DNA from: Eledone cirrhosa
Taxonomy: Eukaryota
DNA: 64,000 nucleotides
Direction: 5' to 3'
NCBI GenBank assembly: GCA_964016885.1
Contig: OZ024740.1
Location: forward strand, 134,230,001-134,294,000
Shown here: piece after piece, positions 291 to 59,573 of the stretch
Layout: each line of letters opens with the position of its first letter
Position numbering within the stretch: position 1 is the first letter of the stretch
Notes under the pieces: generated by a model
Seen by the model: the letters and a program-made list of their open reading frames with translations, nothing else
Databases searched by the model: none
What the model was told of the DNA's origin: nothing
Made by a program: the position numbers and the translations under genes

Positions 291-324
291 CGGTCAAAAA
301 CTTTAATTACGAAAATGATATATA

Positions 325-3775: not shown

Positions 3776-3821
<46 letters not shown>

Positions 3822-3824
<3 letters not shown>

Positions 3825-4724: not shown

Positions 4725-4787
4725 TTTTATCTGATGAGGACGAACAGTTGAACTTAATTCAGTACCTCTGAAATATGTATAATAAAA
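4725..4787 (+). ncRNA. Type I hammerhead ribozyme motif (minimal, Penelope-type)
   Basis: ttttat-CTGATGA-stem II-GAAA-tatgta-TA-ataaaa: stem I ttttat/ataaaa, near-palindromic stem III, AUA cleavage triplet. Confidence 0.7.
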
Positions 4788-5289
4788 TATAATTGATCAC
4801 AAGAATATCTATTATGTTAATATTTGGAATTAATATATATATATATATATACAACTAATATCACTAACATCCCCGCGACTCCACGCACACGAACTAACAC
4901 CTTCACACACACACCCACACCTACATACACCACCCACTCCACATTCAACCCTTTCCCCACCACCAGTATACTAACACCCACTAACATCCCTTTTACCACA
5001 CACACACACACCAGTACACTACACTCCCTCCTCCGTCCCCAACACCTTTTATCTCCCTCACCCTCTCCCCGCTCCACCTACACCCCTTCACACACACACA
5101 TCCCACTAACACCTCTACTAATACACACCCCATCCCTCCACATGACCACCTCCCTCCTCCATCTTTCACACCTACCCATCCCCGCCCCTGTCCACGGCAC
5201 CTCCGCACACACAGACACACAGTCCTCACCACACACTGACCATTTCTCCACCTGTCATTCTCCTCTACTGCAATCACTTCACCCTGCCT

Positions 5290-35261: not shown

Positions 35262-36828
35262 TATAGGAAAAAGTATGACCCCGACGGCAGAGCTCAAGCC
35301 GTTTCGACGGCTATTTCTGGACTAAATTAGAATTTTTAGCCTGGTAAATAAATACCCGAACTTATCAAGAGGTACTTCTTTATATTGCCGGTGTTGGTAG
35401 AGCCGGGTCTTAAAGTGACTTTAAGACCCGGCTCTACCAACACCGACATACTTTCCGAAACCCGGTCCGGCGACATGCCACTACACTTTCGGGCCACATC
35501 TTGGGCCTCCAAGATAATAATATAACCTACAATCTCACTTGGAGATTACTGTTCAGAGCTAACTCTTACACGGGATTACGCGGTCCGTGTAACTTATGCT
35601 CGGAGGAAACATTACAAATGATGTTTTCGAAGGATCAACTCCTAAACAAGAAAGACGAACTGGTAACCGCATGCAAACACAGATTACGTAGGACTTACCT
35701 CGCCCTCAAACCCCATAACGACCCGGGTGGGTAGACAAGGGCTGATACCCCCCACTTGCCGAATAAGTTAGGGGAAACCCCAGCTTACATAGGTAGATGT
35801 ACCTCTTTTATGTTGTCTTCTTCCCCCTGTCTCATCCTATCACTTCCTTCCAACCCCGATCTTCTTCCTCGTCTGTTTTTCCCCTTCCGCCGTCCCCGAT
35901 GCAGCCCATTGGGCCTCTTTAGCCTCAGTACCCCCACCCCTGTAATTTTCAGATAGAATTGGCCGAATACGCTTTACTAACTATTTATAGCAGATGTGTT
36001 AGACCCATGTAATTTTGTATCTTTTTTGTTACTACTCCAATTCTACAATTTTTAAATTTCTTATTTAGTATTTTCTTTTCTCAACTTATTAGCCTGTAAT
36101 TGTAAGTTAGCATTGGCGGAATACGCTTTACTAACTATGTTAGCTGTGTTAGACCCCTGAAAAGTTTGCATTACATTTTTTCACTACCCACTTTTACAAT
36201 TTTAGTATTTTCCATTCTCGAATTATTAACCTTTTCTATAGCTTTGGCCATACAAGCAACACCTACTAATTATAGCAGCTGTCTCTAGACTCTACTGTTT
36301 TTTTGTTTTTTTATTCATTTCTCACTATCTATTTTATATATTTTTTTATATTTCTTTCTATTATGTTTTATTGTCTCCTACTCTCATCTGATTTACCTAT
36401 TCTATAACCTCCCTCCTCCATTTTCTCCAGAACAATTCTTCGACTTTTCATACACTATCCTTAGAATTTGCTGTATAGATATCACTTTCAACGCTTGAAC
36501 GGGTCCACTCACTCCCTCACTGTTCTACAAGCAAGTTCAGCCACCCCTACCTCCCACCAAATGCCATGATAGACTTACTTGTTTTTACAACAAATTTTGA
36601 CCAATCCTCTTGACAACTACAATCTTCCCATATAAGGAAGTACCCCTTGATAAGGTCGGTTATTTATTTACCAGGCTAAAATTTCTAATTTAGTCCAGAA
36701 ATAGCCGTCGAAACGGCTTGAGCTCTGCCGTCAGGCTCATACTTTTTCCTATTATCCACTCTACTACCCTAAGTATTGAGTACTCTGGTGCGTTATGGTC
36801 CATCTGGTTCCTTACCACATCTCCTTCG

Positions 36829-36830
<2 letters not shown>
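35262..36830 (+). mobile_element. 5'-truncated Penelope-like element with inverted pLTR at the 5' end
   Basis: 35262-35385 is the reverse complement of 36630-36753; 60-bp junction hairpin at 35388-35447; GIY-YIG tail TWRLL..A.SY.....CNLCSEE.L.....LLNKKDELV..CKH; ~150-bp UTR subrepeats; (TA)n on both sides. Confidence 0.88.
36643..36736 (+). ncRNA. Type I hammerhead with U3-A8 core variant (UUGAUAA)
   Basis: cccc-TTGATAA-ggtcggttattt...aaatagccgtc-GAAA-CGGC ttgagctct GCCG-TC-aggc; the same core is in the inverted copy at ~35277-35372. Confidence 0.72.
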
Positions 36831-36862
<32 letters not shown>

Positions 36863-36929
36863 CGTTTCTGAATTTGTTTAGCAAGATTCTTTATCTGAAA
36901 ACGTGTGTTGAAACCGATATTGTTATACT

Positions 36930-37172
36930 TTGGGAGGGTCATGTTGCCAATAAGAAACACACGCACCAGCTGCTTTCACTTCAATTTATTATAATAAATT
37001 TATAAATTTAGGAATTTATAAATTTCCGGTTGGTTGGTTGGTTCCACAACCAGATGGTTGTTTATATATTGTCAAAGTTCTTTCGTCACACATTCTGTGA
37101 CCTCTTCAGTGACTGGGATTCTTTTCTTTGTTTTTGTACCTCTCCTTTGTTCTGTCCTACGCCATCTTGTTT
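36930..37172 (-). mobile_element. Short non-coding element with hammerhead (37071-37113)
   Basis: Minus strand: gtca-CTGAAGA-G-GTCAC-agaatgt-GTGAC-GAAA-g aa c-TT-tgac; related pieces at 20553-20795 and 46278-46325. Confidence 0.8.
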
Positions 37173-37180
37173 ATATATAC

Positions 37181-37534
<354 letters not shown>

Positions 37535-39995
37535 GCTGTGACCTCTTCAGGCAGTCCGAATTAGTGTGGTATAGACAAATACATATGTTGTTGAGGTGTA
37601 TAATTTTGTCAATACTCTGATATGCCCAGTTCCTGGTTGGGTTGTTATTTCACTGAGGAACTGGAATCATATGAATTCAAACAAACGAATTTCAGTGTCA
37701 AAGGTCCTCTTCTCCTCTCACTGGTCAGTTGTTAGAACATTCCTCATTCTAAGGTGGTAAAGGAACAAAATAACAAAAAAAGTGTCAAACTTCCCATTGG
37801 TCAGTTTTGAGAGCATTCCTCAGTCAGAAGTCTATATAATTCTTTCTGGGGTGAGGCTCCCTGTAGTGTTTGTGTTTGCTATTGTTAAGTACATTTGACC
37901 TCTACCATTATTTCGGTAGTGTTGTTGGTGTTGTGGTCAGCTTATGTCTTGCTGCTGCTGACAATTTAGAAGTATCTGTGTGTGTTTTTTCTTCATCCCT
38001 CCTGCCACCATCTCTCATAGTGGTGGGGGGGGGATTCTTCCATGTACATGAATAAATATAAGTCAATAAATGAAGAAAACAGAAAATAAATAATAAATAG
38101 AGAATAAAGAACAAAGAATAAATGAAAAATTGGTGAAAAAGTAATGAAAATGTGTCTGATTCAATCTCTAGGCTATCATGGTGTCTGTTCAGCCTGGGTT
38201 GTTCTCTATGGCTTGAAGGGAGTTCACAACCTAGAGTGTTGTTACTGCCCATATAGCTTGAGGGAGGTCTGGCCGAGAGGTGTCTACATGTTCTGTAGAA
38301 TTCCCTATAGCTTGAGGGGAGTTCACATCTTCTTGTGTTGCTACTGTCCATATATCTTGAGGAAGGTCCCGGCTCTAAGGTCCCTGCATGTCCCGAAGAA
38401 GTCGGTTCTGAGGTTTATCAGGCCGGTTCCACCTCTTAGTATCTCGAGGGTCTCGTTCAGGCATAGTTTGCATATGCAAGATCCCCCTTTATCGCGTGGT
38501 ACTTTCCTTATTATGTACCAGGCCAGAGAGTACGGGGTCCTGTCCAGCTTAAGCTTCCAGATCAGGTCGGAGAGAGCCGTGCTTTTCCTTTTGGCCTCCT
38601 TATTGAATGAATGGCGATGGTTGTACCAGCGGTCTTTAAAGCTCGTGGATGTGGCTCCTATGTAGAGGTGTTTGGAGTTGGGAGTTTTAACCCTACAACC
38701 GTATACTAGGTTCTTCTTAAGGCATTCATTACCAAGGGGGCATGATTCGGGGTTTCTGCAGTTGCAGAAGGTGGTCGACCTCTGCGTGCCTAGATTAGGG
38801 TTCTCGTTATGTGTTACATGGTGATCTTCCCCAGGCACGGTGGGGGGTCCCCAGGTCTGTTTGGGTTTCTTGGGTGGGCTCTGGGTCCCCCCCCCCTTCC
38901 CTCTTTTCACATGGTTCTGCTGAGTGCTTGTATTGCCATCTTCTGGTTGTGTGTGGTTTTTAAGCCTACTCCTGTTGATGCTAGCTATGTGTTGGGCCAG
39001 ATTTCTCGTGGTGGAATACGAGAGCTTCACAGTGTGTCTGTTGAAGATCCTGTGGTATCTATGGTCCCTCGGGAAGCATTTATCAAGTGCTCCAAAGAAT
39101 GATCGGGCCAAGCTGTTCTTTAGGGCCGCTGAGTAGGGTGGGTTGTACCACGTGATTTTTCGGTGTCTCCTCCTATATGTGTGGTTCGGGGGCGTCGTGA
39201 TTTGTTGGAGATTTGTTGGGTTGCTGGTGGTTCCCGCACTGTTGCTTCCTCTTTGGGCGCTATGCTTTTTGTTATCTTCACGGCCCGAATCTGTGGGGTG
39301 GTCGTTGCCCGCGCTGGGAGATCTATCGTGGGGTGGTCCCCCGTTCCCCGCCCCCCTACGTGTCCTGCGGTTGGGGTCGTCGGTCCTGGGGTGGTTAGCG
39401 TCACCCCTTAGACTGCGACTCATATTGTGTTTCATCTCGTGGTTAAGCGTACTAGTCACCACCGCCCGTGTGGTGGTGTCGGGCACATGGTGCCTATTTG
39501 TTTCTGCTCTGCCTGTATTGTTAGGGTTCGTCCGTCCGCCCCCCCCCCCCCCCCCCCCCCCCGGAGCAGCGCAGCTGTTGGTGTCTGTTGGGCTATCCCC
39601 ATGCCGGCGTTTCGGACTATATGTTATATTTTGGCCATGTGCCGCCTTCTTTAGAGCTGCGTTGTAATATTCCGCGTTGTTATCGAAGATTTCCTTACTT
39701 GCGGACAGGCTGGAGATCCTGTCTGAGACACTCTTCACCACTGCCTTGGTTATGGATCTAGGGTGGTTTAATTTGGCGTTAACATATACGAGTTTCTCGT
39801 TGGGCTTGTGGTAAGGGTAGTATTGTTCGGTGTTCAGGTTTAGGGTGGTGTCTAGGAAGTTAACTACCTTCCTATTTGGGTCTAGTTTTATACTGAGCCC
39901 CTGGTTCTTAAAGAAATGGCGAATACGCCTCCGCATTCCCTCCAACATATTGGTGCTGTGGTCATATACTGTGAATAGAGCATCGTCACGATATA
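37535..39995 (-). mobile_element. 5'-truncated Penelope-like element, Naiad-like (RT C-half, thumb, CxCx5C, GIY-YIG, 3'UTR ending in a broken hammerhead)
   Basis: YRDDAL, VNFLDTTLNL, YHKPN...YVN...NHP, ITWYNPPYS, IFNRHTVKLSYS, CNCRNPESC, LVY..YIGAT..FKDRWYNH, CKLCLNE, LIN; CTGAAGAggtcac at 37550-37538 (minus). Confidence 0.9.
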
Positions 39996-41913
39996 CGATA
40001 TATCGCTCAAAAGTCCTCCGGTACAGACTGGTCAGTTCGACTTCGTCGAGGCCCAAAGCTTCTCCGAGTGCGTCATCGCACTTGCCCACAACTAATCCTC
40101 TATAGAACTCGAGAGTGGAAGTTCCACTGATCGCATTGCCCGCTTGGTAGAGGGCAGTGAGTGCCTGGCAACATTCCAGGTGCCAGTCACCCAGTCTCGG
40201 TCTCTTCTTGACCCAGGACTGCAGCTCAGTCAGAGAAATGAGCTGCGGAAAGGCCCGTCTGATAAACGGCGACCACACCTGTTCACCGTTGAGGCAGAAT
40301 ATCTGGAGATGTCGCAGCCTCAACGCGTGTCTGCGCATCATTAGCCACGGCATGCCCAGCCCTCCGCGTAGAGGGTGCTGGCAGCAGATGCACCGCCTCA
40401 CCAACGGAACTTGTCCCCTCCACAAGAATTTGAAGAGGAGCCGTTCCAGCTTGACAAGGCGCGGACGGGGGCAAGGCACGACGGTCAGGCGGTAGTAGAT
40501 GACGGAGGCGATGTACGCATTCGCCACCTCCGCGCGACCTCTCAGTGATAGCTTCATCCCAGCCCATTTTTGGGTGAGACTGGCTACTCTGCTCGTTACG
40601 TCGTCCCAATTCTTTTCCACCTGGAGGTCTGGTCCGAACCAAACACCGAGCAACTTTACCGGTCCGTCCGTCCAGCGCCCCACGACGCTGTTGGACGGCA
40701 TGGGCTTGCCTCTCCAGGTTCCGAGCTGCAATCCCACAGACTTTTCCGGGTTAAGTTTGGCTCCTGTCAACCTTTCATATTCCTTCAATAAGGTGCCGAC
40801 CACCTCGATTTCTGAGGTGTTCGACACCATTACGGTGATGTCGTCCGCATAAGCCGACACCGCCTTCCCACGTCCCGGTTCGAGCGGGATGCCCTGCAAC
40901 AGCTCCAGCTTCTGCAGTAAAGGCTCGAAAGTCAATACGTACAGAAGGGAAGAGAGAGAGCACCCTTGACGTACCGATCGGGAGAGCCGAAATGGTTCAG
41001 AGAGGTGGCCATTAACCTTCACCACCGAGCATGTGTCGCTGTGCATTGCAACGATCCAGCTTCTAAAGACAGGGCCGAAGCCAGCTGCTTTGAGGACAAA
41101 CTCCAGATACCGATGGTCGACCCTATCGAATGCTTTCAATTGATCTAAATTGATCAGTGCCCTACCGAAGCCAGGTTTACACCCTACCCTCTCTATGATG
41201 TATCGCATGAGGTGGAGATTGTCGTGTATGGACCTGGCTGGGATTGCGCAAGTTTGCGCCTCCCCAACCAAATCCTCGACGACAAGCGCCAATCTCTTTG
41301 CTAACACCTTGGCCAAAATCTTAAACTCTGTGTTGAGCAGAGTTATGGACCTGAAGTTGTCTAATGTATCCCTCTTGTTCTCGTCTTTCCTTATCAGCGT
41401 CACCACTCCCCTGCTCACAGAACTGGGAATACTCCCATTCTGCTGCCAGTTGCAGTAGAGTGCTTCGAGGAGTTCGGAGAACAAGTCTGGCATATTTACG
41501 TAAAGCTCGTAGGGCAGGCCATCCAAACCGGGTGACTTGCGCCTCATGCAGCCGACAAGGGCGTCCTGAATTTCGGCTGAAGTAATCGGCCTTTCGCAGC
41601 GCTCAACGTCGACCGTCGAGATGCGCGGCAAGCCGTCAAGGTAGGGACTGAAATCCGCTACTCTCTCTGACTCGCCACTCTCTCTGAACAACCGAGCAAA
41701 GTGCTGGCGAAAGGCCTCACACATCCGCTTGGAATCGCTTATCTCGTGTCCGTCTCGGTCCGCCAAAGACCGAATTATGGTTTTATTACCACGCTGCGCC
41801 TCCGCCACGCGGGCCCATCGAACAGCTTTAGTTCCCTCGTTTCTCAGCGCACGCGTCTTAGTTCTGACAATGCAACCTTCGTGTTTGGCATTGAAGAAAT
41901 GGTCTAATGCCAT
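38341..41913 (-). CDS. Chimeric 1190-aa ORF: Tx1 reverse transcriptase fused to Penelope RT C-half and GIY-YIG endonuclease
   Basis: Stop-free in the ORF track (38341-42048); first ATG at 41913. KSPGLDG, DQLKAFDRV, QGCSLS and YADD, then YRDD and YIG motifs. Expression unknown. Confidence 0.6.
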   Translation of the reverse strand: MALDHFFNAKHEGCIVRTKTRALRNEGTKAVRWARVAEAQRGNKTIIRSLADRDGHEISDSKRMCEAFRQHFARLFRESGESERVADFSPYLDGLPRISTVDVERCERPITSAEIQDALVGCMRRKSPGLDGLPYELYVNMPDLFSELLEALYCNWQQNGSIPSSVSRGVVTLIRKDENKRDTLDNFRSITLLNTEFKILAKVLAKRLALVVEDLVGEAQTCAIPARSIHDNLHLMRYIIERVGCKPGFGRALINLDQLKAFDRVDHRYLEFVLKAAGFGPVFRSWIVAMHSDTCSVVKVNGHLSEPFRLSRSVRQGCSLSSLLYVLTFEPLLQKLELLQGIPLEPGRGKAVSAYADDITVMVSNTSEIEVVGTLLKEYERLTGAKLNPEKSVGLQLGTWRGKPMPSNSVVGRWTDGPVKLLGVWFGPDLQVEKNWDDVTSRVASLTQKWAGMKLSLRGRAEVANAYIASVIYYRLTVVPCPRPRLVKLERLLFKFLWRGQVPLVRRCICCQHPLRGGLGMPWLMMRRHALRLRHLQIFCLNGEQVWSPFIRRAFPQLISLTELQSWVKKRPRLGDWHLECCQALTALYQAGNAISGTSTLEFYRGLVVGKCDDALGEALGLDEVELTSLYRRTFERYIVYRDDALFTVYDHSTNMLEGMRRRIRHFFKNQGLSIKLDPNRKVVNFLDTTLNLNTEQYYPYHKPNEKLVYVNAKLNHPRSITKAVVKSVSDRISSLSASKEIFDNNAEYYNAALKKAAHGQNITYSPKRRHGDSPTDTNSCAAPGGGGGGGGGRTNPNNTGRAETNRHHVPDTTTRAVVTSTLNHEMKHNMSRSLRGDANHPRTDDPNRRTRRGAGNGGPPHDRSPSAGNDHPTDSGREDNKKHSAQRGSNSAGTTSNPTNLQQITTPPNHTYRRRHRKITWYNPPYSAALKNSLARSFFGALDKCFPRDHRYHRIFNRHTVKLSYSTTRNLAQHIASINRSRLKNHTQPEDGNTSTQQNHVKRGKGGGTQSPPKKPKQTWGPPTVPGEDHHVTHNENPNLGTQRSTTFCNCRNPESCPLGNECLKKNLVYGCRVKTPNSKHLYIGATSTSFKDRWYNHRHSFNKEAKRKSTALSDLIWKLKLDRTPYSLAWYIIRKVPRDKGGSCICKLCLNETLEILRGGTGLINLRTDFFGTCRDLRAGTFLKIYGQ

Positions 41914-41917
41914 TCTC
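40006..41917 (-). mobile_element. Tx1-clade LINE internal fragment (linker, RT, thumb); no APE and no 3' end
   Basis: Collinear with ORF2 at 56163-59573 from ALDHFFNAKHEG to RRTF; (TTA)n at its 5' junction (41920-41945). Confidence 0.95.
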
Positions 41918-42071
41918 ACAATAATAATAATAGTAATAATAATAAATTTGAAGACTAAAATCCAAAGAGGGCTCGATAAGGATAAATATATATCAGATAT
42001 ATAAGAACGGTAGAGCAAATATTTATTAAAATAACAGATTTTAATCAAACAAACTTTAATCTGTTATTTTA

Positions 42072-42131
<60 letters not shown>

Positions 42132-43349
42132 GGTGGTGTATAAATTTAGTATTCTTTTCGCTACTTGTTTATTGCTTCTTCTCTTGTCATTGTTTTTGTT
42201 ATAGATGTTATCTTTGTTTTTGTTGTTGTTTATAATCATTAAAGTATTTTTCTCTTACAACCTTTAACATGATACTATTGATTTCTCTATTTCATATTTG
42301 TTATCTTCTCTCTCTCTATCTATCTTTCTATCTCTATCTTTAGTTCTCATACAAACTCCCACACCCTCTCTCCCACTCTCTCACTATCTCTCACTCTGTC
42401 TTTCTCTTAATCTCTCCCACTCTCTTACTCTCCCACTCTCTCTCTCACTCACTCTCTGTCTTTCTCACTTTTCCCTCTCTCTCCCTTCAGCTCTCTTAGA
42501 GACACCAATGCTCTCCCTCTCCCTCCCTCTATATTTTTCTCTCCACCTGTCTCTCTCTCTCACTCTCTCCTACTTTCTCACTCTCTCTTTCTCCCACTCT
42601 CTTACTCTCTCCCACTCTCTCCCACTCTCATTCTCTCTCTCTCTCTCTCTCAGTCTTTCTCACTTTTTCCCTCTCTCCCTTCAACTCTCTTAGAGACACC
42701 AATGCTCTCCCTCTCCCTCCCTCTATATCTTTTCTCTCTCTCTCTTTTTCCTTCTCCCTCCTCTACACAGTACGTATCACTCTCCTATTATTCCTTTTTT
42801 CTTACTTTCTTTCTTTCCTTCTTTCAATAGTTTTCGATATCACTTGATCCGAAGATAACGAAGTTGCGACGACAACGGAAGAATTTTGGTAGATTTCTAA
42901 AAGTTCTTGAGAAAAAAGACAAGTATGTGAAGTTAAGTTAAAGAAAATGAAGCCAACTTCTTTGCGAATATGAATGCTTACAAGAATGATGGTTTAATCA
43001 GCGTAAAAACAAAATAAAGGAAAAAGTAAGAAGAAAATAAGTTTCTTTCATACGTTCTGAACTCTATACACACAACAGGGTAATCAATGTAATCGATAAA
43101 ACATGTTTTGGGAAAAACCTGTGCTTCGTCCAATTTCTATATTAAAGGTAGCTGAAAAATCTTCATCATAAAATTAGTATTTAGAGAATTGACATCCGCC
43201 CAGAAGAGATAAAAGAAATGTTCTGTTTTGTTTCCAGCTACTATCATCTAAATAACATGGTCATCCTTCCACCATCAACCACTAAGTATGTTTCGTGTAC
43301 ACACATAATCTTGATATAAGTGTTGAGAGAATTATAGTTGGGTGTGTAG

Positions 43350-46324: not shown

Positions 46325-49300
46325 GGAAAGATAGATCCGTGCCACCCATACCCACGCCACGGAAATCAAGAACAGCAGCAGCAGTGTAAGTATCAACAAC
46401 AACAAAAGTAATACAACTGCAGCTGCAACAGAGACTTCACTGCAACCATCACCAACAAGAACAAGTGAAAGAGTGGAGCTGGTACCCCTCCCCGACCTCA
46501 CAGAATCGGACATGGAGTGTGAGGTGGGATAGGGATGGCAAAAGGTCGCAAGAAGGCACAAACGCAGAAGCAGCACATCGTCGCCTTCAAAAAGGGAGGG
46601 AGGAGATGAAAAAAGGGTGAATGTTACTGCAAAGAGACTTACAGCAGCAACACCACCAACAGAATCACCACCCACACTAGGACTACCATCACCACCGACG
46701 GCAACCCCACCGCCAACAACAACAACACCTTCAACAACACCACCACAAGCACCAACATCGCAAACACAACAACAAAACACACGCACCCAGCAAGAACGAC
46801 AGGAAAACAGCAAAACCACACCCCACCCCAAAATAAGAAATGCACAGCAATAAATACGCAACAAGAAACTAATGACTTACATAATTGAACACACAGACAT
46901 TTCACAGCACGACTACATAATACCAGCACCAATCAAAACACCAACGAACTTAAGACTGGTAAGAATATCACAGAATGAATACACTAACACTAAAATGAAA
47001 TTCCCCAACGCAGTTGGTGATTCCAGAGATCTAGGAGGGACACTCAACCGGAGAGTGTACTCGGATAAACTCACAGAAGAGCCGACGACCAGCCGAAGGG
47101 ACGGTTCAACGGTCCCTTCACCAGACGATCAAGGTAAGTGATCCTTTCTCACTTGCCCCGTTCCTCACCCAACATGGCCGTATTCAGGATCAGAAGTGTA
47201 AACGTGCGTGGCTTGAGTTCGGTTTGGAAGCAGGGTCACTTCCTTAACGACCTCAAGTCACTAAACATAGATGTGGTAGCCATCAGCGAGACGAGAATTT
47301 CCGAAACGCAAGCTTTCGCACCGATCTTCGACGGTTACGAGGTGTATGCATCTCCGAACCGTCTGGGAGCGGGTGGCGGAGTGGCTGTATTGTTTCAGAG
47401 AGGCTTGGGTCTCGCCATACGGACCATATTCCTGGACCCAGAAGGTAAGTCGGTGGTACTGGACATGAACGGCACCGAAGGCAACGCTTTCAGACTAGTA
47501 GCCGTCTATGCCCCAACAGAGGCAGGACGGCCAGATTTCTTCAGAAGTCTAGAGACCTTTCTGGGAACGTCCCGCTCTTTAGTGTTAGTGGGCGACTGGA
47601 ACGGTATCTTGGATACACGCTGGGATTGTGTGGGGCTAGTGGATAGGGGAGGAGGGTGCAAGAGCCTCACCAACCTGCTCAGACATTTTGAACTGTCTGA
47701 GAGGTATCGACTGGATCACCCGAATGTGCCAATGTGGACATGGACAAACCGCATCGGGTCATCCAGATCGCATCTAGATAGGGTATTCTGCAGAGAACTA
47801 GATAAGGCTAGTATAGGTTGTCCACAATTTAAAATAGTCGACTACACGGACCACAAATTTGTGATTTGTGAGATCGACATTGACAGACTTCATAGACAAG
47901 GACCCGGTTACTGGAAGCTGAACGCGTCTTACCCGGCGCTCAAAGCCTACAGAGACCGGATTAGCTTATTAGTTAAGCGGGCGTTGACGGGAGCGGTCGT
48001 CAACAACGGGTGGTGGTTGGCCCTGAAAAGGGCAAGTAAAATAGAGTCGATTAGGTTTAGCAAAGGAGTAGCGATAGAGGAAAATAGAGTAGAGGGAGAG
48101 CTAGTCAGAAAGCTAGAAGAGGCGTTTAGGACAGGCATCGCAACTGACGTGCTTGCAGAGAGATTGGCACTCGACCAATTCTTCAACGCAAAACACTAAG
48201 GCTGCGTTGTCAGAGCTAGAGCGCGTGCTCTGAAACACGAGGGGACGAAAGCCGTCCAATGGGCCCGGGTGGCAGAGGCGCGACGTGGCAACAAAGCCAC
48301 AATTTGGTCTTTGTCTGACCAAAACGGGCGCGTGTTGCTCAAACCCGAGCAGATGTGTGAGGCTTCTCAGCAGCACTTTGCTGAACTGTTCGAGTGCAAC
48401 GGCGGGTCGGATTGGGGTATGGACTTCAGTGCATACCTCGACGGACTGCCTCAGCTCTCGACGACCACAGACAGTGTTGCGAAAAGCCAATAACAGCCGG
48501 TGAAATACGGGAAGCGATGTCTAACTGCACGAGGTGTATATCGCCAGGTTTGGATGGTCTGCCCTACGAGCTTTATGCATTTATGCCAGACTTGTTCGGT
48601 GACGTCTTTTCAGACGTCTACTGCAACTAGCAGCATAACGGGAGCATTGCCAGTTTTGTGAGCCGGGGAGCGGTGGCGCTGCTGAGAAAAGACCCGAACA
48701 TGGGAGATGTTATCGATAACTTCAGGCCCATAACTCTGCTAAACGCAGAGTTCAAGATTTTGGCCAAGTTGTTACCAACGAGGTTGGCGTTTGTCGTTGA
48801 GGATCTGGTGGGAGAGGCGCAGATATGCGCCATTCCGGACAGATCCATACACGACAACCTCCACCTCATGAAATACATCGTAGAGAGGGTGGTTAAGGAA
48901 CCTGGCACGGGTGGGGCTCTGATCAACTTGGATCAATCCAAAGCTTTCGATAGGGTCGACCATCGGTACCTGGCGGCGGTCCTCGAGGCAGCCGGTTTCG
49001 AGCCCGTTTTCAGGGGTTGGATCGCTGCGATGTACAGCGACATCTTCTGGGTTGTGAGGGTGAACGGTCACATGTCGCAGCCGTTCAGCATCATGCACTC
49101 GGTCCGCCAGGGTTGTCCCCTCTCGTCCCTCTTGTACGTATTGGCTCTCGAGCCGTTACTGCACGAACTGGGGGCGATGAGGTGCGTCCAACGCGAACTG
49201 GGATGCGTGAAATCCGAGTCGGCTTATTCCGACGACGTCACCGTGGTGGTGTTGAGCAGCAGACACATCCAGATGCTCGGCACCGCTCTCAAGGAATACG

Positions 49301-50918
49301 AAGCGGTATCAGGAGCAAAGATAAGATAAACCAGGAAAAGTCGGTGGGCTTGCAGCTCGGCACCTGGAGAGGCAAGTCCATGCCATCTGACAGCGTCGTG
49401 GGGCGTTGGACGGACGGACCGGTTAAATTGCTCGGGGTCTGGTTCAGACCGGACCTCCAGATGGAGAAAAACTGGAGCTAGGTGACAAGCAGAGTGGCCT
49501 CCTTCACCCAGAAATGGGCCGAGAGGAAGCTGTCCCTGAAAGGCCGGGCGGAGGTGGCGAATGCGTACATCGCATCCGTCATCTGCTACCGCCTCACCCT
49601 CGTCCCTTGCCCCGGACCAACTCTCAATAAACGGAGCGCCTCCTCTTCCTCTTTTTGTGGAAGGGCCGCGCTCCCATGGTCTGACGATCCATCTGCTGTA
49701 AACACCCGTTGGGTGGAGGGCTGGGGAATGCCATGGCTGATAATGCGCAAACATGCGCTGAGGCTGCGACATCTCTGGTGCTTCCTTGACGGTGAACAGG
49801 TGTGGTCGCCGTTCGCCAGGCACGTTTTCCCACAGCTCGTCTCCTTGACGGAGCTGCAATCCTGGGTCAGGAAAAGACCGAGAGATAGCGCTTGGAAACT
49901 GGAATGTCTCCAGGCACTCACCGCCCTCTGCCAGTTGGGCACCAGTATCGGTGGAACATCCACCTCGGCGTTATATAGAGGAATAGTGGAAGGGAAGAGC
50001 GACGACGTTCTCGGAGAGATCCTGGGCGTCGAAAAAGGGCAGCTGTTTGCTCTCTTGCGGAGAACTTTCAGCCCAGTGCCTATGGATAACTTACAGAAAT
50101 CCCTGGCCTGGCAGTGCTACCGGGGAGCGTTGCCGGTTCGAGATAAGCTCTACAGACACGGAAGTGCCGTCAACCGAACCTGTTCGAGATGCGCGCAGAG
50201 CGACGAAACCGTCGTGCACGCACTCGTTCAGTGCCCGAGCATTGCTGACTTGTGGAGCTATGTCGAACAGTTGCTGTCGCGTGTAGGACTGATCCGGTTA
50301 TCGACTGAGTCCATTGTGCAGATGGTCTCACCGTCTTCCTTCGAGGAGGAGGGGCAGGCGGTTTTCATCTGCCTGGTGACCATGGCGAAAGAGATTGTGT
50401 GGTGGACAAAGTTGAAAGGGTTAAAGACAGACACTTTCCTCTTCGGCGAATCCCTGATTAACTTTTTCAAGTTTCACTTGAAGAGGAAAATCAGGGTGGA
50501 GAGGCAGGTGCTGCCTTCTAGCAAGTTTGTTGAAAGGTGGGTGAATGTAGCGAGAATGGTCCGAGTAAACGGGACCGCTCTGAATATACGCTTGTAGTTT
50601 GAGGAATGGAAAAATTCAGAGAGGGCGCTTGCCCTGGTGGTCAGGGTGGCCGTGGTCTTTTGTGTGGTTTTAGCTACGAATAATCCTCGGAGTTTTCCCC
50701 CCTATTGGGGAATTTTTTCATCGTTTGAATGTTCATTTTTATTGTTTATATGTCTTTTTTCTTTTTCGTTTCATATATAAACAATTAAAAAATCTTTACA
50801 CGCACAAAACCCACATCGTACCGTCCTGTACCGTCCTGTGCCGTCTGTAATGTTTTTCTTGATGTCAGCCCTTGTGGCCAATAAAGAAATCACCAATATT
50901 ATTATTATTATTATTATT
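46325..50918 (+). mobile_element. Tx1-clade LINE copy A: 5'-truncated within ORF1, ORF2 disrupted, (TTA)n tail
   Basis: ORF1 tail homologous to 55480-56128; ORF2 from ATG 47174 to 50597 with stops (48197, 48628, 49479) and frameshifts; YADD changed to YSDD. Confidence 0.95.
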
Positions 50919-53900
50919 GGCGACCTACGTAGTAAATCGTATCATCGTGAGCTCAGCAAAGGTTTGTTATTTCCGTTTGTTAAAAATTGCCATTTATGGC
51001 TAAACGCGTCCTTACCAGCGCGCATGCCCTACAGAGACCGGATTAGCGAACTAGTTAAGCGGGCGTTGACGGGGGCCATCGTCAACAACAAGTGGGGGTT
51101 TGCTCTGAAAAGAGCGATTAGAATAGAATCCATTAGGTTTAGTAAGGCTTTAGCAATAGAGAAAAATAGAGCAGAGGGAGAACTAGTTAGAAAATTAGAC
51201 GAGGCGCTTAGCAAAGGCATTGCGACCGACGTGCTTGCGGCGAAATTGGCCCTTGACCAATTCTTCAATGCAAAGCACGAACGCTGCGTTGTCAGAGCAA
51301 GGGTGCGTGCTCTCAGACACGAGGGGACGAAAGCCGTTCAATGGGCCTGAGTGGCGGAGGCGCGTCGTGGCAACAAAGCCACGATCCGGTCTTTGGTGGA
51401 CCACGACGGGCGCATGCTACTCGATCCCGGGAAAATGTGTGAAGCTTTTCAGCGACACTTCGCTCAGCTGTTCGGGGGCAGTGGTGGGCCGGGTCGAGAG
51501 ATGGACTTTAGTGTCTACCTCGACGGACTGCCGCGGCTCTCGGCCACTGAGGCGAAATGTTGCGAAAAGCCGATAACAGCCGCTGAAGTAAGGGAGGCAA
51601 TGACTGGCTGCACAAGGGGTAAATCGCCTGGTTTGGATGGTCTGCACTATGAACTTTACGTACAGATGCCAGACTTGTTTGGAGTCCTCTTGGCGGACGT
51701 CTACTGCAACTGGCAACAGAACGGGAGAATTCCCAGTTCTGTGAGCCGAGGAGCGGTGGCACTGCTGAGAAAGGATCCGAACAAGGGGGATAACATAGAT
51801 AATTTCCGGCCCATAACTCTGCTAAACACAGAGTTCAAGATTTTGGCCAAGGTGCTAGCAAAGAGGTTGGCGCTTGTCGTTGGTGGTCTGGTGGGAGAGG
51901 CGCAGACATGCGCCATTCGCGACAGATCCATCCACGACAACCTCCACCTCATGCGATACATCGTAGAGAGGGTAGCTAGGGAACCTAGCACGGGTGGGTC
52001 CTTGATCAATTTAGTTCAGTCGAAAGCTTTCGATAGGGTCGACCATCGTTACCTGGCGACAGTCCTGAGGGCGGCTGGCTTTGGGCCCGTCTTCAGAGGC
52101 TGGATCGCTGCCATGCACAGCGACATCTGCTCTGTGGTGAGAGTGAACGGTCACCTGTCGGAACCGTTCAACATCATGCGCTCGGTCCGCCAAGGATGTC
52201 CCCTCTCGTCCCTCTTGTACGTATTGACTCTCGAGCCATTACTGCACAAACTGGAGACGTTGAGGGGCATCCCGCGCGAACTACGATGCGGACGATGTCA
52301 CCATAGTGGTGTCGAACGCCAAACACATCGAGGCGATCGGCACTACACTAAGAGAATACGAAGCGGTGACAGGAGCAATGATCAACCAGGAAAAGTCAGT
52401 GGGCCTGCAGCTCGGCACCTGGAGAGGCAGGTCCATGCCGTCCAACAGCGTCGTCGGACGCTGGACGGACGGACCGGTTAAATTGCTAGGGGTCTGGTTC
52501 GGTCCGGACCTCCAGACGGACAAAAACTGGGACGAGGTGACGAGCAGGGTGGCTTCTCTCACCCAGAAATGGGCGGAGAGGAAGCTATCCCTGAAAGGTC
52601 GAGCGGGGGTGGCTAACGCGTACATCGCGTTTGTCATCTGCTACCGCCTGACCGTAGTACCTTGTCCTAAGCCTCACCTGACTGCGTTGGAGCGTTTGCT
52701 CTTTCGCTTTTTGTGGAAGGGACGCGCTCCGATGGTCAGGCGGTCCATCTGTTGTCAACACCCGCTACGTGGAGGGCTGGGCATGCCGTGGCTGATGATG
52801 CGTAGGCACGCGCTCAGGCTACGACATCTCCACCTCTTCCTCGACGGTGATCAGATGTGGTCGCATTTTGCTAGACACGTATTTCCCCAGCTCGTTTCCT
52901 TGACGGAGCTGCAGTCCTGGGTCAAGCGAAGACCGAGAGGGAGCGCCTGGAGACTGGAATGTCTTCAGGCGCTAACAGCCCTCGACCAATCGGGCAATGT
53001 GATCGGTGGAAACTCCACCTCAGCGTTCTATAGAGGATCAGTGGAGGGGAAGAGCGACGACGTGCTTGGGGAAACTCTAGGCGTCGACGAAAATCAACTA
53101 GCCAATCTCTTCGGAAGAACTTTCGGGCCAGGGCCTATGGACAACTTCCAGAAATCTCTGGCCTGGCAGTGCTACCGAGGAGCCTTGCCAGTTCGGGATA
53201 AACTCTACAGGCATGGAGGTACCGTCAGCCGGGCATGTCCGAGATGCGCGCAGGGCGACGAAACCGTCCTGCACGCACTCGTCCAGTGTCCGAGCATTGC
53301 TGACTTGTGGGTTTATGTCGAACACCTTCTGTCACGTGTAGGACGGATCCGGCTATCATCTGAGTCCATTGTGAGGATTGCCCCGCCCTCCTCCTTTAGC
53401 CGGGAAGGGCAGGAAGCTTTTATCTGTCTGGTGGCCATGGCGAAAGAGATAGTATGGGGGACACGTTTGAAAGGGCTGAAGACGAGCACTTACCTCTTCG
53501 GTGATGCTCTGATTGACTTTTTCAAATTTCATTTGAAAAGGAAAATCAGAGTAGAGAGGGAAGTGCTCTCTTCCCAGCATTTTGTTGAAAGATGGGTGAG
53601 AGAAGCAAGAATGGCCCGAGTGAATGGGCCTACTCTGAGTATAAATCTGTAAATTAAAGGTGGAAAACTGGGAGAGGGCACTTGCCTTGGTGGTCAGGGT
53701 CATTGTGGCCTTTTATTGGGCTTTCTCCACAAATGTCCCTCCGAAGTCTCCCCCCTATTGGGGAATTTTTCATTGTTATTTTTTGTTACATCCTCTCTTT
53801 TTGTTTTTTACACGCAGAAATGCCCATTTGTACCGTCCTGCATTGTCCTGCACTGTCCTTAATGTCTACTTTATGTAAACCCTTGTGGTTAATAAAGAAA

Positions 53901-53935
<35 letters not shown>
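50919..53935 (+). mobile_element. Tx1-clade LINE copy B: 81-nt 5' end joined to post-APE ORF2, disrupted, (TTA)n tail
   Basis: 5' end ggcgacctacgtag as in copy C; jumps at 50999/51000 to ctaaacgcg; stop at 51348; deletion at ~52290 removes the YADD codons. Confidence 0.95.
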
Positions 53936-54143
53936 GGCGACCTACGTAGTAAATCGTATCATCGTGAGCTCCGTAAAGGTTTGTTATTTCCGTTTGTTAA
54001 AAATTGCCATTTATGGAAAATTTTATTGTTAACTGTTTATAAGCACACATACATTGTTTTCCGAAAAGGACACCCAAAAAGATTGGGGCCTTGTGCCCAA
54101 AATTTTAACTTTTATTATTATCCAAAAATTTCTTTGAAAAAAA

Positions 54144-56128
54144 ATGGCTAATTCCCCTCTGCACGAAGCAGCTGAAAGCCTTCCTCACAAAATAACACCT
54201 CACACCGACACCACCATTGTAAATGTTACTACGTTTGCCAACACAAAAAAAAATATAAGCAGTAGCAATATTTTAAATTTGTCTCAGGCAGACATTCATT
54301 TCCCGCCATTACCAATGACTGCAGGTGTTAAAGCCTCCACCACCACCACCACCGCGACAACCACCACCCCCACCACCACCGCGACAACAGAAACAAAAGA
54401 AGAAAAAAATAAATTAACTCGTGATGTCGAAATGAAATCAAGCAAAATGGACTCTTCCGCACCAAAGACGACTGACGTCACCACCACCACAACTGAAACT
54501 AAAATTAATATTAACGATAGCAACAACAACAACAATGACATTATAAAACCCCCCCTCAGTTTCGCCAGAGTAGCAAAACAATTCAAAGCATTTATGGTAA
54601 CTCAGGAAGATTTAGAAAATGCCAAACAAATGGTAAAGAAAGATGGGTACAGGGTCAGCCTCACGCCCCCACCTAATAAAATGGAGCATCGGCGCCTATG
54701 CACCGTGTCGTATAGAACAATAAATGTAAAATCGCGTCGAGTGGAACGGGCATCCGAGTCCCAAATCCAAAAAGCTTTGGGACATGTGTGGGCAAGAAAA
54801 ACCCACATCAGACGTGGGCAAAAGTATGGAACCGTGGATGTGTTCTTTGAAACACCAGAGGAGGCTAGGGAACACTCCATGGCCCCATTAAAAAGTGACG
54901 ACTTCACACTCGTCCCAAGCTATTGTGGCCAGAGACTCGTAAAGATCAGGGTGACCCACGTTCCACCGGCCATCGAAATTCCCTGGCTAATAGCGGCTGT
55001 TCTCGCCGGCATCGAAGCCAACACGAAAATAATAGCAGTAGCAAAAGAAAAGCAGGAAAACTGGTCCGGATCTGGGATGGAGCTCCTAATCCAAGCGGAC
55101 CAAAAAAGCATTGAGGAGATCCCAGAGGTAATAGACCTCACTGACGGCAGCCACCTCACCGTAATTGTCGAGGGCAGAAGACCTAGGTGTGTCGTTTGTG
55201 GTGAAGGAACCCACCTAAGGGCTTTCTGCCCTCAGGCTAAAAGGTTGAAGCCACCTCTCCTACCCACCCCAGTGACACAACCATCAACACCACCAGTAGC
55301 AGAGATGGCAGCAACAACTGTAGCAGCAACAACAGAAGCAACTATAACAGCAACAACCCCAGCAACAGTAGCAAAACCAACACCACTACCACCACCAGCA
55401 AAACCAACACCACCACCACCCAACGCTTCAGAACTAGCACCAGCGCCTACACCATCCACCACACCACAACCAAAACTAACGGCTGTGGAGGATTTTCCAC
55501 TCCCCGGCCTATCACAACTGGAGACAGATTGTGACGACGAGGAGTGGGAAACGATATCCGGAAAAAAAAAAGAAACCAAAAAAGAAAAAATTCTCTTCCT
55601 TCTCCCTCCAAAAACAAAATACAGAGGGAAACAAATAAACTAAGAAACAAAAAAGTTAGGACAGATATGCCACCATCCACACCAGCATCACCAACCCCAT
55701 CAACCCAAACACCAACACCATCACCATCATTAACTCCAACACCACCATCACCTACACCACAAAAGTCACCAAAATGCGAAACAGAAACAAACCCACAACA
55801 AACGCAAACAAAACAAAACAACCAAAACGATACACACTACACAGCATTAAATTTGAACAACAAGCAATTATTACACTACATCCAACACAACACCAGCATC
55901 ACAGAAAAAGACTACACAACAACCCCAAAATTCACACCACCTCCAAACATACAAATCACTCGCATCACACAGAAAACGTACATGACACTAAAACAAAAAT
56001 TCCCAAAAGACATCGGAGACTTCCGACAAGCACTCTCCAGGAGGATTTATAAGGACATCCTTCCTGAGGAGGCCACAAGCAGTGAAAAGGATGGAAAAAC
56101 CGTTCTTCCCCTACGAGAAGTAAGGTAA
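54144..56128 (+). CDS. LINE ORF1 (gag-like: RRM-like region, CCHC knuckle, Pro/Thr-rich linker) with one frameshift at the A-run near 55562
   Basis: CVVCGEGTHLRAFC = C-X2-C-X4-H-X4-C; the downstream frame (55544-56128) is homologous to the copy A ORF1 tail. Confidence 0.85.
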
Positions 56129-56162
56129 GTGGTCTTTCCCATCTTTTCCACTCCTTTTCAAC

Positions 56163-59100
56163 ATGACCTCACTCAGAATAGGCAGCATAAATGCGCGTGG
56201 CTTGGGGTCGTCATGGAAGCAGGGCCACCTGCTCAACGACCTCAGGTCACTAAACATAGATGTAGTGGCCATCAGCGAGACCAGAATCTCCGAAGCACAG
56301 GCTTTCGCACCGATCTTCGGCGGCTACGATGTGTACGCATCTCCCAGCCGTCCGGGATCGGGAGGAGGAGTTGCTGTGCTTTTTCGGAGAGGTTTGGATC
56401 TTGCCATACGGGCCATCTTCCTGGACCCAGAAGGTAAGTTGGTGGTGCTGGACGTGACCAGCGGAGACGGGAAAGCTTTCAGGTTAGTGGCCGTCTATGC
56501 CCCGACAGGAGCAGGGCGGCCTGATTTCTTCCGGCGTCTGGAGACCTTTCTTGGAACGTCCCGCTCTTTAGTGTTAGTGGGCGACTGGAACGGGATCTTA
56601 GATGCACGCTGGGATTGTGTGGGATTAGTGGATAGGGGAGGAGGGTGCAAGAGTCTCACCAACCTGCTCAGACGTTTTGAACTGTCTGACAGGTACCGAA
56701 TGGATTTCCCGAATGTACCAATGTGGACTTGGACAAATCGCATAGGGTCATCCAGATCATATCTAGATAGAGTATTTTGTAGGGAAATAGATAGGTCTAG
56801 CATAGGCTGTCCACAATTCAAGATAGTCAGCTACACGGACCACAAATTCGTGATCTGTGTGCTTGACTTAGATAGGCTTCATAGGCGAGGACCCGGCTAC
56901 TGGAAGCTAAACGCGTCCTTACCAGCGCGCAAGGCCTACAGAGACCGGATTAGCGAACTAGTTAAGCGGGCGTTGACGGGGGCCATCGTCAACAACAAGT
57001 GGTGGTTTGCTCTGAAAAGAGCAATTAGAATAGAGTCCATTAGGTTTAGTAAGACTTTAGCAATAGAGGAAAATAGAGCAGAGGGAGAACTAGTTAGAAA
57101 ATTAGATGAGGCGCTTAGCAAAGGCATCGCGACCGACGTACTTGCGGCGAAATTGGCCCTTGACCAATTCTTCAATGCAAAGCACGAAGGCTGCGTTGTC
57201 AGAGCTAGGGTGCGTGCTCTCAGACACGAGGGGACGAAAGCCGTTCAATGGGCCCGAGTGGCGGAGGCGCGTCGTGGCCACAAAGCCACGATCCGGTCTT
57301 TGGTGGACCACGACGGGCGCATGCTACTCGATCCCGGGCAAATGTGTGAAGCTTTTCAGCGACACTTCGCTCAACTGTTCAGGGGCAGTGGCGGGCCGGA
57401 TCGGGGGATGGACTTTAGTGTCTACCTCGACGGACTGCCGCGGCTTTCGGCCACTGAGGCGGAGTGTTGCGAAAAGCCGATAACAACCGCTGAAGTACGG
57501 GATGCAATGACTAGTTGCACAAGGGGTAAATCGCCTGGTTTGGATGGTCTGCTCCATGAACTTTACGTACAAATGCCAAACTTGTTCGGAGGCCTCTTGG
57601 CGGACGTCTACTGCAACTGGCAACAGAACGGGAGAATTCCCAGCTCTGTGAGCCGAGGAGCGGTGGCGCTGCTGAGAAAGGATCCGAACAAGGGGGATAA
57701 CATAGATAATTTTAGGCCCATAACTCTGCTAAACACAGAGTTCAAGATTTTGGCCAAGGTGCTAGCAAAGAGGTTGGCGCTTGTCGTTGGTGGTCTGGTG
57801 GGAGAGGCACAGACATGCGCCATTCCCGACAGAGCCATCCACGACAACCTCCACCTCATGCGATACATCGTAGAGAGGGTAGCTAGGGAACCTGGCACGG
57901 GTGGGTCTTTGATCAATTTAGATCAGTCGAAAGCCTTCGATAGGGTCGACCATCGTTACCTAGCGGCAGTCCTGAGGGCGGCTGGCTTTGGGCCCGTCTT
58001 CAGAGGCTGGATCGCTGCCATGCACAGCGACATCTGCTCTGTAGTGAGAGTGAACGGTCACCTTTCGGAACCGTTCAACATCATGCGCTCGGTCCGCCAA
58101 GGATGTCCCCTCTCGTCCCTATTGTACGTATTGACTCTCGAGCCATTACTGCACAAACTGGAGACGTTGAGGGGGGTCCCGCGCGAACTAGGATGCGGAA
58201 GATCCGTGTCAGCATATGCCGACGATGTCACCGTAGTGGTGTCAAACGCCAAACACATCGAGGCGATCGGCACTACACTAAGAGAATACGAAGCGGTGAC
58301 AGGAGCAATGATCAACCAGGAAAAGTCAGTGGGCCTGCAGCTCGGCACCTGGAGAGGCAGGTCCATGCCGTCCAACAGCGTCGTCGGGCGCTGGACGGAC
58401 GGACCGGTTAAATTGCTAGGGGTCTGGTTCGGTCCGGACCTCCAGACGGACAAAAACTGGGACGAGGTGACGAGCAGGGTGGCTTCTCTCACCCAGAAAT
58501 GGGTGGAGAGGAAGCTATCCCTGAAAGGTCGAGCGGAGGTGGCTAACGCGTACATCGCGTCCGTCATCTACTACCGCCTAACCGTCGTACCTTGTCCTAA
58601 GCCCCGCCTGACTGCGCTGGAGCGTTTGCTCTTTCGCTTCTTGTGGAAGGGACGCGCTCCGATGGTCAGGCGGTCCATCTGCTGTCAACACCCGCTACGT
58701 GGAGGGCTGGGCATGCCGTGGCTGATGATGCGCAGACACGCGCTCAGGCTACGACATCTCCACCTCTTCCTCGACGGTGATCAGGTGTGGTCGCCGTTTG
58801 CGAGACACGTTTTTCCCCAGCTCGTCTCCTTGACGGAGCTGCAGTCCTGGGTCAAGCGAAGACCGAGAGGGAGCGCTTGGAGACTGGAATGTCTCACAGC
58901 CCTCGACCATTCGGGCAATGTGATCGGTGGAAACTCCACCTTGGCGTTCTATAGGGGATTAGTGGAGGGGAAGAGCGACGACGTACTTGGAGAAACTCTA
59001 GGCGTCGACGAAAATCAACTAGCCAATCTCTTCGGGAGGACTTTCGGGCCGGGGCCTATGGACAACTTCCAGAAATCCCTGGCCTGGCAGTGCTACCGAG

Positions 59101-59573
59101 GAGCTTTGCCAGTTCGGGATAAACTCTACAGGCATGGAGGTGCCGTCAGCCGGGCATGTCCGAGATGCGCGCAGGGCGACGAAACCGTCCTGCACGCACT
59201 TGTCCAGTGTCCGAGCATTGCTGACTTGTGGGTTTATGTCGAACACCTTCTGTCACCTGTAGGACGGATCCAGCTATCAGCTGAGTCCATCGTGAGGATT
59301 GCCCCGCCCCCTTCCTTTAGCCGGGAAGGGCAGGCAGTTTTTATCTGTCTGGTGGCCATGGCGAAAGAGATAGTATGGTGGACACGTTTGAAAGGGCTGA
59401 AGACGAGCACTTACCTCTTCGGTGATGCCCTGATTAACTTTTTCAAATTTCATTTGAAAAGGAAAATCAGGGTAGAGAGGGAAGTGCTCTCTTCGCAGCA
59501 TTTTGTTGAAAGATGGGTGAGAGAAGCAAGTATGGCCCGAATGAATGGGCCTTCTCTGAGTATGTGTCTGTAA
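56163..59573 (+). CDS. LINE ORF2: APE endonuclease, reverse transcriptase and C-terminal zinc-binding domain (1136 aa)
   Basis: NARGL, ISET, VYAP, GDWN, LDRV, TDH, GYWKLN (APE); KSPGLDG, FRPITLLN, DQSKAFDRV, QGCPLS, YADD (RT); CPRC..ETVLHALVQC. Confidence 0.97.
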   Translation: MTSLRIGSINARGLGSSWKQGHLLNDLRSLNIDVVAISETRISEAQAFAPIFGGYDVYASPSRPGSGGGVAVLFRRGLDLAIRAIFLDPEGKLVVLDVTSGDGKAFRLVAVYAPTGAGRPDFFRRLETFLGTSRSLVLVGDWNGILDARWDCVGLVDRGGGCKSLTNLLRRFELSDRYRMDFPNVPMWTWTNRIGSSRSYLDRVFCREIDRSSIGCPQFKIVSYTDHKFVICVLDLDRLHRRGPGYWKLNASLPARKAYRDRISELVKRALTGAIVNNKWWFALKRAIRIESIRFSKTLAIEENRAEGELVRKLDEALSKGIATDVLAAKLALDQFFNAKHEGCVVRARVRALRHEGTKAVQWARVAEARRGHKATIRSLVDHDGRMLLDPGQMCEAFQRHFAQLFRGSGGPDRGMDFSVYLDGLPRLSATEAECCEKPITTAEVRDAMTSCTRGKSPGLDGLLHELYVQMPNLFGGLLADVYCNWQQNGRIPSSVSRGAVALLRKDPNKGDNIDNFRPITLLNTEFKILAKVLAKRLALVVGGLVGEAQTCAIPDRAIHDNLHLMRYIVERVAREPGTGGSLINLDQSKAFDRVDHRYLAAVLRAAGFGPVFRGWIAAMHSDICSVVRVNGHLSEPFNIMRSVRQGCPLSSLLYVLTLEPLLHKLETLRGVPRELGCGRSVSAYADDVTVVVSNAKHIEAIGTTLREYEAVTGAMINQEKSVGLQLGTWRGRSMPSNSVVGRWTDGPVKLLGVWFGPDLQTDKNWDEVTSRVASLTQKWVERKLSLKGRAEVANAYIASVIYYRLTVVPCPKPRLTALERLLFRFLWKGRAPMVRRSICCQHPLRGGLGMPWLMMRRHALRLRHLHLFLDGDQVWSPFARHVFPQLVSLTELQSWVKRRPRGSAWRLECLTALDHSGNVIGGNSTLAFYRGLVEGKSDDVLGETLGVDENQLANLFGRTFGPGPMDNFQKSLAWQCYRGALPVRDKLYRHGGAVSRACPRCAQGDETVLHALVQCPSIADLWVYVEHLLSPVGRIQLSAESIVRIAPPPSFSREGQAVFICLVAMAKEIVWWTRLKGLKTSTYLFGDALINFFKFHLKRKIRVEREVLSSQHFVERWVREASMARMNGPSLSMCL

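Follow-up and report, generated by a model that had tools for sequence, protein, structure and literature searches.

A LINE reverse transcriptase frame open into a Penelope nuclease in Eledone cirrhosa: likely one dead composite insertion

Does a reading frame that crosses from one class of retroelement into another record an exchange of nucleases, or the accidental joining of two fragments? Retroelement classes are defined by the pairing of a nuclease with a reverse transcriptase (RT), and the question is posed by a 64,000-nucleotide stretch of Eledone cirrhosa DNA (hereafter the window: positions 134,230,001 to 134,294,000 of OZ024740.1, a 443-Mb contig in the 3.0-Gb genome assembly GCA_964016885.1). 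Here a piece of a long interspersed nuclear element (LINE) runs without a stop into the 3′ half of a Penelope-like element (PLE) that ends in a GIY-YIG nuclease. A working hybrid of LINE RT and GIY-YIG nuclease would be a new pairing, with domain swapping in progress across classes, and a newborn chimeric gene would be a snapshot of cross-class nuclease exchange in retroelements. The evidence likely points to one dead composite insertion. The frame itself is confirmed in the assembly: a preliminary description, made from the letters alone, had reported 1190 stop-free codons, and these indeed extend on the minus strand from the first ATG (41913→38341), within 1240 codons from stop to stop (38341..42063).

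Anatomy and copy number of the junction

Comparison with 34 LINE and 29 PLE loci makes the break points sharp. LINE sequence extends to 40005, PLE sequence starts at 39995, and between them stand nine bases (40004→39996) that occur in neither parent. This filler imperfectly repeats the opening bases of the PLE, in direct and in fold-back orientation, and it forms the micro-palindrome and duplication already noticed at the junction; the YRDD motif at which the Penelope part had been said to start lies at 39993→39982.

The search of the genome for further copies of this junction, proposed in the preliminary description, was run and leaves it single copy in 3.0 Gb. A 301-base junction query gave one full match among the best 40 of 2,351 candidates, the other 39 aligning on the LINE side only (these homology searches score the best 40 of 1,200-2,400 candidates each), and one match was returned both by a genome-wide junction pattern with a free gap and by a 40-base pattern allowing at most three mismatches. 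Each parent family is represented by more than 1,200 candidate copies; the PLE-side query gave 1,217. Three targeted searches found no closer or near-identical second copy of either half, the two families stand side by side at no other locus among those fetched, and the right flank yielded neither a second copy nor a haplotig. At the protein level, the whole frame has 43 database matches, the best covering 53% of it, among which there is no fused protein and none carrying PF26215, the Pfam domain found on most PLE homologues. Pfam calls RVT_1 alone on the frame and does not call GIY-YIG, and a comparison of the PLE half with longer proteins gave none at E≤0.001 among 5,042 candidates, a null result of little weight.

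Two parent families and what each has lost

The LINE piece is 97.8% identical to a long sibling and corresponds to positions 3227-5139 in a reference copy 5,970 bases long. It begins after the APE domain and ends about 830 bases short of the family's 3′ end, having lost on that side 173 codons, including the zinc knuckle, and the 3′ untranslated region (UTR) up to the (ATT)n tail. Siblings continue past both break points, and a full sibling second open reading frame (ORF2) encodes APE, RT and zinc knuckle, a layout also supported by Pfam on a 76%-identical LINE family in the window. The earlier reading of this part as a Tx1 ORF2 without APE and zinc tail is upheld by the break points at 41917 and 40005, and RSI and QGCSLS do stand in the RT in place of RPI and QGCPLS. 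YADD is present, and the RT matches residues 386-876 of human L1 ORF2p (E 3e-44). With its APE, RT and C-terminal zinc knuckle, its L1-type RT and its preference for repeat targets, the parent appears to be an L1/Tx1-type LINE, the Tx1 label being assigned on domain layout and microsatellite targeting (as in the excerpted text of PMC4494074) rather than on an RT tree. The 5′ end of the piece resembles that of an ordinary family insertion because it adjoins a (TTA)n tract: 24 of 35 5′ truncations in the family lie behind (ATT)n/(TTA)n (7 of 42 ends having been dropped as internal rearrangements), against 0.28% of random places, and the family's tail is (ATT)n in 19/20 loci. Among 64 3′ ends examined, ten stop internally and three, judged by eye, on non-LINE DNA. 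The missing 3′ part of about 830 bases is absent from the window plus 10 kb on each side (84 kb), in line with the earlier failure to find it beyond the Penelope element; a clean nested insertion was rejected on this ground.

Related LINE copies were also seen. Three stacked copies that share about 75% identity with the fragment's family occupy 47115-59573 (+) of the window, the last of them with long frames at 54138-55643 and 56124-59573, the latter encoding APE, RT and zf-RVT. At L065:5878-7151 the 5′ part of a copy is inverted in the manner of twin priming.

The parent PLE family appears to be of the Hydra type, assigned by its motif set rather than by an RT tree. According to the excerpted text of PMC8557442, Hydra elements have a C-terminal GIY-YIG without CCHH, RWK, DKT, a CxCX5C linker, CxxC and CxH, hammerheads and (TA)n targets, and are generally under 3 kb. 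In the window copy and its siblings GIY-YIG is likewise C-terminal, only one Cys lies between VY and YIG, with no CCHH motif, and the CxCX5C linker precedes the nuclease in the window copy and homologues. CxxC and CxH flank the conserved E and N of the family, whose 3′ ends run into (TA)n or tail and whose copies also resemble the clade in their inverted 5′ parts; the RWK motif and the change of DKG to DKT are found in 4/4 long siblings tested, this region being missing from the window copy. A hammerhead descriptor of our own matched 19/20 sibling PLE loci, while Rfam over 36500-42500 gave no hammerhead and sub-threshold microRNA matches on hairpins only. Unnamed database homologues share the Hydra-type motifs. 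Unlike the clade, the parent family is about 4.2 kb long with long G-rich linkers, and the window copy is a broken 3′ half. The label "Naiad-like" given earlier has to be withdrawn: Naiads share the (TA)n bias and inverted structures, but they have an N-terminal GIY-YIG with CCHH and no canonical hammerheads (PMC8557442, excerpted text), the opposite of the parent family on all three counts, and membership was rejected. As to the nuclease, the preliminary description was right about the core residues, Tyr, Gly, Arg, His, Glu and Asn being invariant with nine homologues, and wrong in taking all key residues to be present, since the CxH motif reads CxD (38382). The His concerned, a likely zinc ligand, is kept in 9/9 homologues and 51/55 siblings, and CxD occurs, among all of these, in the window copy only.

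The window PLE shows three sites of damage: the 5′ half, the 3′ UTR and the 3′ terminus. About 1,190 bases are lost from the 5′ side, with RWK, DKT and the RT motifs up to B′, including the first catalytic one. Of 51 sibling 5′ ends, 42 adjoin PLE sequence (inverted in 29, direct in 3) or (TA)n (10), and the remaining 9 lead into DNA of other kinds. The UTR deletion removes about 320 bases, the difference from individual siblings ranging from about 300 to 465, at a 2-base microhomology, and is shared by 0/28 of them; the normal 3′ terminus is reached by 60/62 siblings, whereas the window copy lacks the last ~90 bases. The break in its hammerhead falls in stem II, where a microhomology of 4 bases links it to repeat B. 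The latter is a short fold-back fragment, with a truncated distal arm, of another repeat that carries a hammerhead and is anchored at (TA)n. On the other side stands repeat C, likewise short, fold-back and (TA)n-anchored and present in multiple copies, which ends in TTA repeats, a few C copies carrying extra ones. Two (TA)n tracts enclose the whole stack (Table 1), and all four stacked pieces share one orientation. Missing from the fusion are the LINE's ORF1, 5′ UTR and (ATT)n tail, the PLE terminus and half of its hammerhead.

Table 1. Features of the stack in window coordinates
Feature	Position	Strand	Basis
Chimeric open frame, ATG 41913, 1190 codons + stop	38341..41913	-	
Internal L1/Tx1-type LINE ORF2 piece (RT region), putative class	40005..41917	-	
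9-base filler	39996..40004	-	34 LINE + 29 PLE loci compared
Putative Hydra-type PLE, 5′-truncated at YRDD, minus last ~90 bases	37531..39995	-	
CxCX5C linker + GIY-YIG nuclease	38344..38766	-	
24-C run in PLE low-complexity linker	39539..39562	+	
Copy-specific +4 G / -1 G pair	38832..38899	-	
Deletion point in PLE 3′ UTR	38151..38152	-	
5′ half of PLE hammerhead ribozyme	37531..37555	-	
Repeat B	37275..37534	-	
(TTA)n tract at LINE 5′ end	41918..41929	-	
Repeat C	41930..42064	-	
(TA)n tract, left boundary of stack	37181..37274	.	
(TA)n tract, right boundary of stack	42065..42129	.	

Several observations on PLEs at large stand apart from the window copy. The Hydra-type family, with its more than 1,200 candidate copies (loci L032-L060, L082-L101 and L153-L181 among those fetched), is a side result in its own right: long, G-run-rich low-complexity linkers separate RT from nuclease, and in most copies the 5′ side bears a 3′ end in inverted orientation. 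At one sibling (L154) the 5′ junction with unrelated DNA bears a templated duplicate of the PLE's own break region, like the filler in the window. At another (L177:1485-2624, -) about 69 codons of unrelated DNA stand in frame with an open PLE nuclease half of 380 codons, a second chance in-frame fusion; a long frame upstream of the PLE at L173 was dropped, as it proved to be (TA)n. At the same locus, positions 2-895 (-) belong to a remnant of another, diverged PLE family, which bears a similar WYN-type motif and lies next to a long (TA)n tract. Diverged tandem repeats of 99 and 76 bases (window 38202-38403 and 37716-37825) lie in the PLE coding end and 3′ UTR and recur in siblings. Further hammerhead-like motifs occur at window 37379 and 37114 (-), in short (TA)n-anchored repeats of other families, several of which crowd the same (TA)n tracts genome-wide.

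How the fusion may have arisen

By whatever route, the fusion is very probably an accident, and the first of the two options offered in the preliminary description, an accidental frame-preserving join, finds support in the single copy and the lost ends. As to the route, we favour with modest confidence the patching of a piece of Penelope complementary DNA into a break beside an existing LINE, with deletion of DNA on both sides. A 5′-truncated LINE would first have inserted normally at (TTA)n. A break, probably at the (TA)n between the LINE tail and repeat B, would then have been chewed back by about 830 bases into the LINE and into repeat B's distal arm. PLE RNA may have been primed internally, some 90 bases from its 3′ end, on the broken end of repeat B through four matching bases, and copied with one skip in the 3′ UTR until synthesis halted at YRDD, after which end-joining with slippage and fold-back synthesis could have left the 9-base filler. 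One aberrant integration is favoured because it is simpler than three events for the abnormal 5′ end, UTR and 3′ terminus; it would jointly explain the lost LINE 3′ end, the short repeat B, the PLE terminus, the UTR skip and the filler. Sibling copies lend this account support, with a templated duplicate at the 5′ junction of L154 and a frame continuous with unrelated DNA at L177. Chance probably kept the fusion in frame, and it is probably inactive.

Several observations weigh against this account. No ancestral allele was seen. Each half diverges by 1.41% from its subfamily (27 of 1,911 sites in the LINE, 21 of 1,485 in the PLE; intervals about 0.9-2.0%), as siblings do, and this equality, with the common orientation of the four pieces, would also fit a single template-jumping event. 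With homopolymer regions masked, copy-specific amino-acid-changing and silent differences (N:S) number 14:13 in the LINE half against 397:198 in siblings (p=0.14) and 11:10 in the PLE half against 399:178 (p=0.15); together, 25:23 against 796:376 amounts to a mild silent excess (p=0.027), and strictly private counts give p=0.018. The PLE half, moreover, stays open through four variable G runs, and its copy-specific +4 G/-1 G pair puts about 21 codons into another frame before the original one resumes, a phase found in 0/47 siblings at the first G run and 3/43 at the second. Among the findings that the preliminary description had named as speaking against its reading were a single-copy junction, which was found, and a dN/dS near 1 in both halves, which the N:S ratios, lying below those of siblings, do not cleanly give.

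How much do these signals mean? In each family, three siblings match or fall below the N fraction of the window copy. Of the 14 amino-acid changes in the LINE half, three alter residues that 24-26 of 26 homologues retain, against 1.8 expected by chance; copy-specific changes do not spare conserved residues, which are hit at a rate as by chance. The LINE half forms an unremarkable tip, its terminal branch measuring 1.4%, in a star-like subfamily, and an unsampled source lineage for its silent changes was dismissed on this ground and for want of a closer copy in the three targeted searches. The silent excess and the compensated frameshift pair are unexplained beyond chance and the choice of the locus for its openness. 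The same spans are open in 7/18 LINE siblings and 1/26 PLE siblings, and, given a 1-in-3 in-frame junction, about 0.5% of such junctions would be open throughout by chance, which is uncommon, but expected somewhere when a scan selects windows for long frames.

Two other accidental routes deserve comparison. The LINE and the PLE could have inserted normally side by side and been fused later by deletions at fragile (TA)n tracts or hairpins, with end-joining leaving the filler. End-joining typically leaves templated fillers and microhomologies of 2-4 bases, which fit such a history, as do the internal deletions common in the LINE family (10/64 3′ ends) and the microhomology deletions that disable Penelope copies elsewhere in the excerpted text of PMC3846280. 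It would, however, require that a copy just 1.4% diverged had undergone three distinct deletions inside 2.5 kb, with a UTR deletion found in 0/28 siblings and a normal 3′ end missing in 2/62, and we hold it possible but unlikely. Distinctly unlikely is a route in which the PLE RT jumped serially from repeat B to PLE RNA, LINE RNA and repeat C, the halves arriving together through a cross-class template switch. One orientation for all four pieces between two (TA)n tracts is what such jumps would leave; both coding halves are without their own 3′ ends and equally diverged, fold-back or template change is usual in the PLE family (29/51 5′ ends into inverted PLE), and template jumps have been proposed for Penelope ORFs (PMC3846280, excerpted text). 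The LINE 5′ end nevertheless bears its own family's (TTA)n signature, though repeat C too ends in TTA repeats, and at no other fetched locus do the two families adjoin.

A selected gene and an artefact of assembly are much harder to credit. The former would be a young chimeric gene or hybrid under purifying selection, joining LINE RT to GIY-YIG, with transcription from repeat C upstream and translation beginning at the 41913 ATG, and we judge it very improbable. The frame is open where just 1/26 PLE siblings is open, it holds a compensated frameshift pair and a silent excess (p=0.02-0.03), and the core GIY-YIG residues and YADD are present. Yet it is single copy and has no ORF1, 5′ UTR, (ATT)n tail, whole hammerhead or PLE terminus; near-invariant residues are altered, three in the RT and one in the nuclease; the low N fraction is matched by three siblings per family; and none of the 43 database matches is a fused protein. 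In the predicted product, an L1-type RT damaged at three conserved sites would be joined to half of a second RT and a nuclease minus its likely zinc ligand. Mobility of the fusion seems unlikely because ORF1 and either family's cis ends are absent and conserved sites are damaged. The second option of the preliminary description, a hybrid element with a replaced endonuclease, is not supported, given the single-copy junction, the searches that found no near-identical second copy of either half, the lost insertion ends and the altered residues. As for the assembly, an error is very unlikely, and a false mis-join at the junction is hardly credible: a filler found in neither parent is not what a repeat mis-join would be expected to create, and the window's only N run (22001-22200) lies away from the junction. 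A contig of run X1 (131 letters, depth 5.5) over 39502-39633 has no differing letters and one gap of a single base, so that it is otherwise exact on window-specific sequence, and several window-specific bases occur at single-copy depth in that sample, which may be the assembly's source. Contigs lose rare paths between high-copy repeats; those of runs X1, X4, X5 and X6 do not cover 39996-40003 and are evidence neither way. There is a minor but appreciable chance that the junction is true and the 24-C run miscalled, which would be compatible with any of the mechanisms. The gap in the X1 contig, whose span includes this run, hints at a run one base shorter, though short-read contigs are unreliable in long C runs; alternative frames past the run stop after 5 and 26 codons, and with a gap in the run the frame would stop 26 codons later, short of the nuclease.

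Relation to known composites, and a neighbouring frame

Composite junctions between retroelements are familiar events, and one degraded copy makes no new class. Compared with full Tx1/L1-type LINEs, the siblings share the APE-RT-zinc-knuckle ORF2, and the parent LINE targets microsatellites like Kibi and Koshi (PMC4494074, excerpted text); it differs in its (ATT)n target, and the window copy in lacking APE, zinc knuckle, ORF1 and tail. The favoured patching of Penelope complementary DNA into a break has its nearest likeness in non-classical, endonuclease-independent L1 insertions, in which the excerpted text of PMC1920257 reports target deletion in 18/21 and extra bases in 15/21. The window resembles these in its 3′-cut insert, target loss, extra bases, microhomology and AT-rich site; it differs in that the insert is a PLE and that the pre-insertion state is a reconstruction. 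Pen2_Av of Adineta vaga, inserted in a non-LTR element with a microhomology at its 5′ junction and no target duplication (PMC3846280, excerpted text), is likewise a Penelope within a LINE, but that copy is intact, and no in-frame fusion is described in the same excerpt. Neither the literature searched, including the excerpted text of bioRxiv 10.64898/2026.07.22.740005, nor the protein searches contained a report of a LINE-RT/GIY-YIG fusion. What the locus does illustrate is that in-frame cross-class fusions, the raw material for nuclease swaps, arise where several families crowd the same microsatellites.

Elsewhere in the window, a 308-codon frame at 12195-13121 (-) matches the DNA-binding domain of Tc5 transposase.

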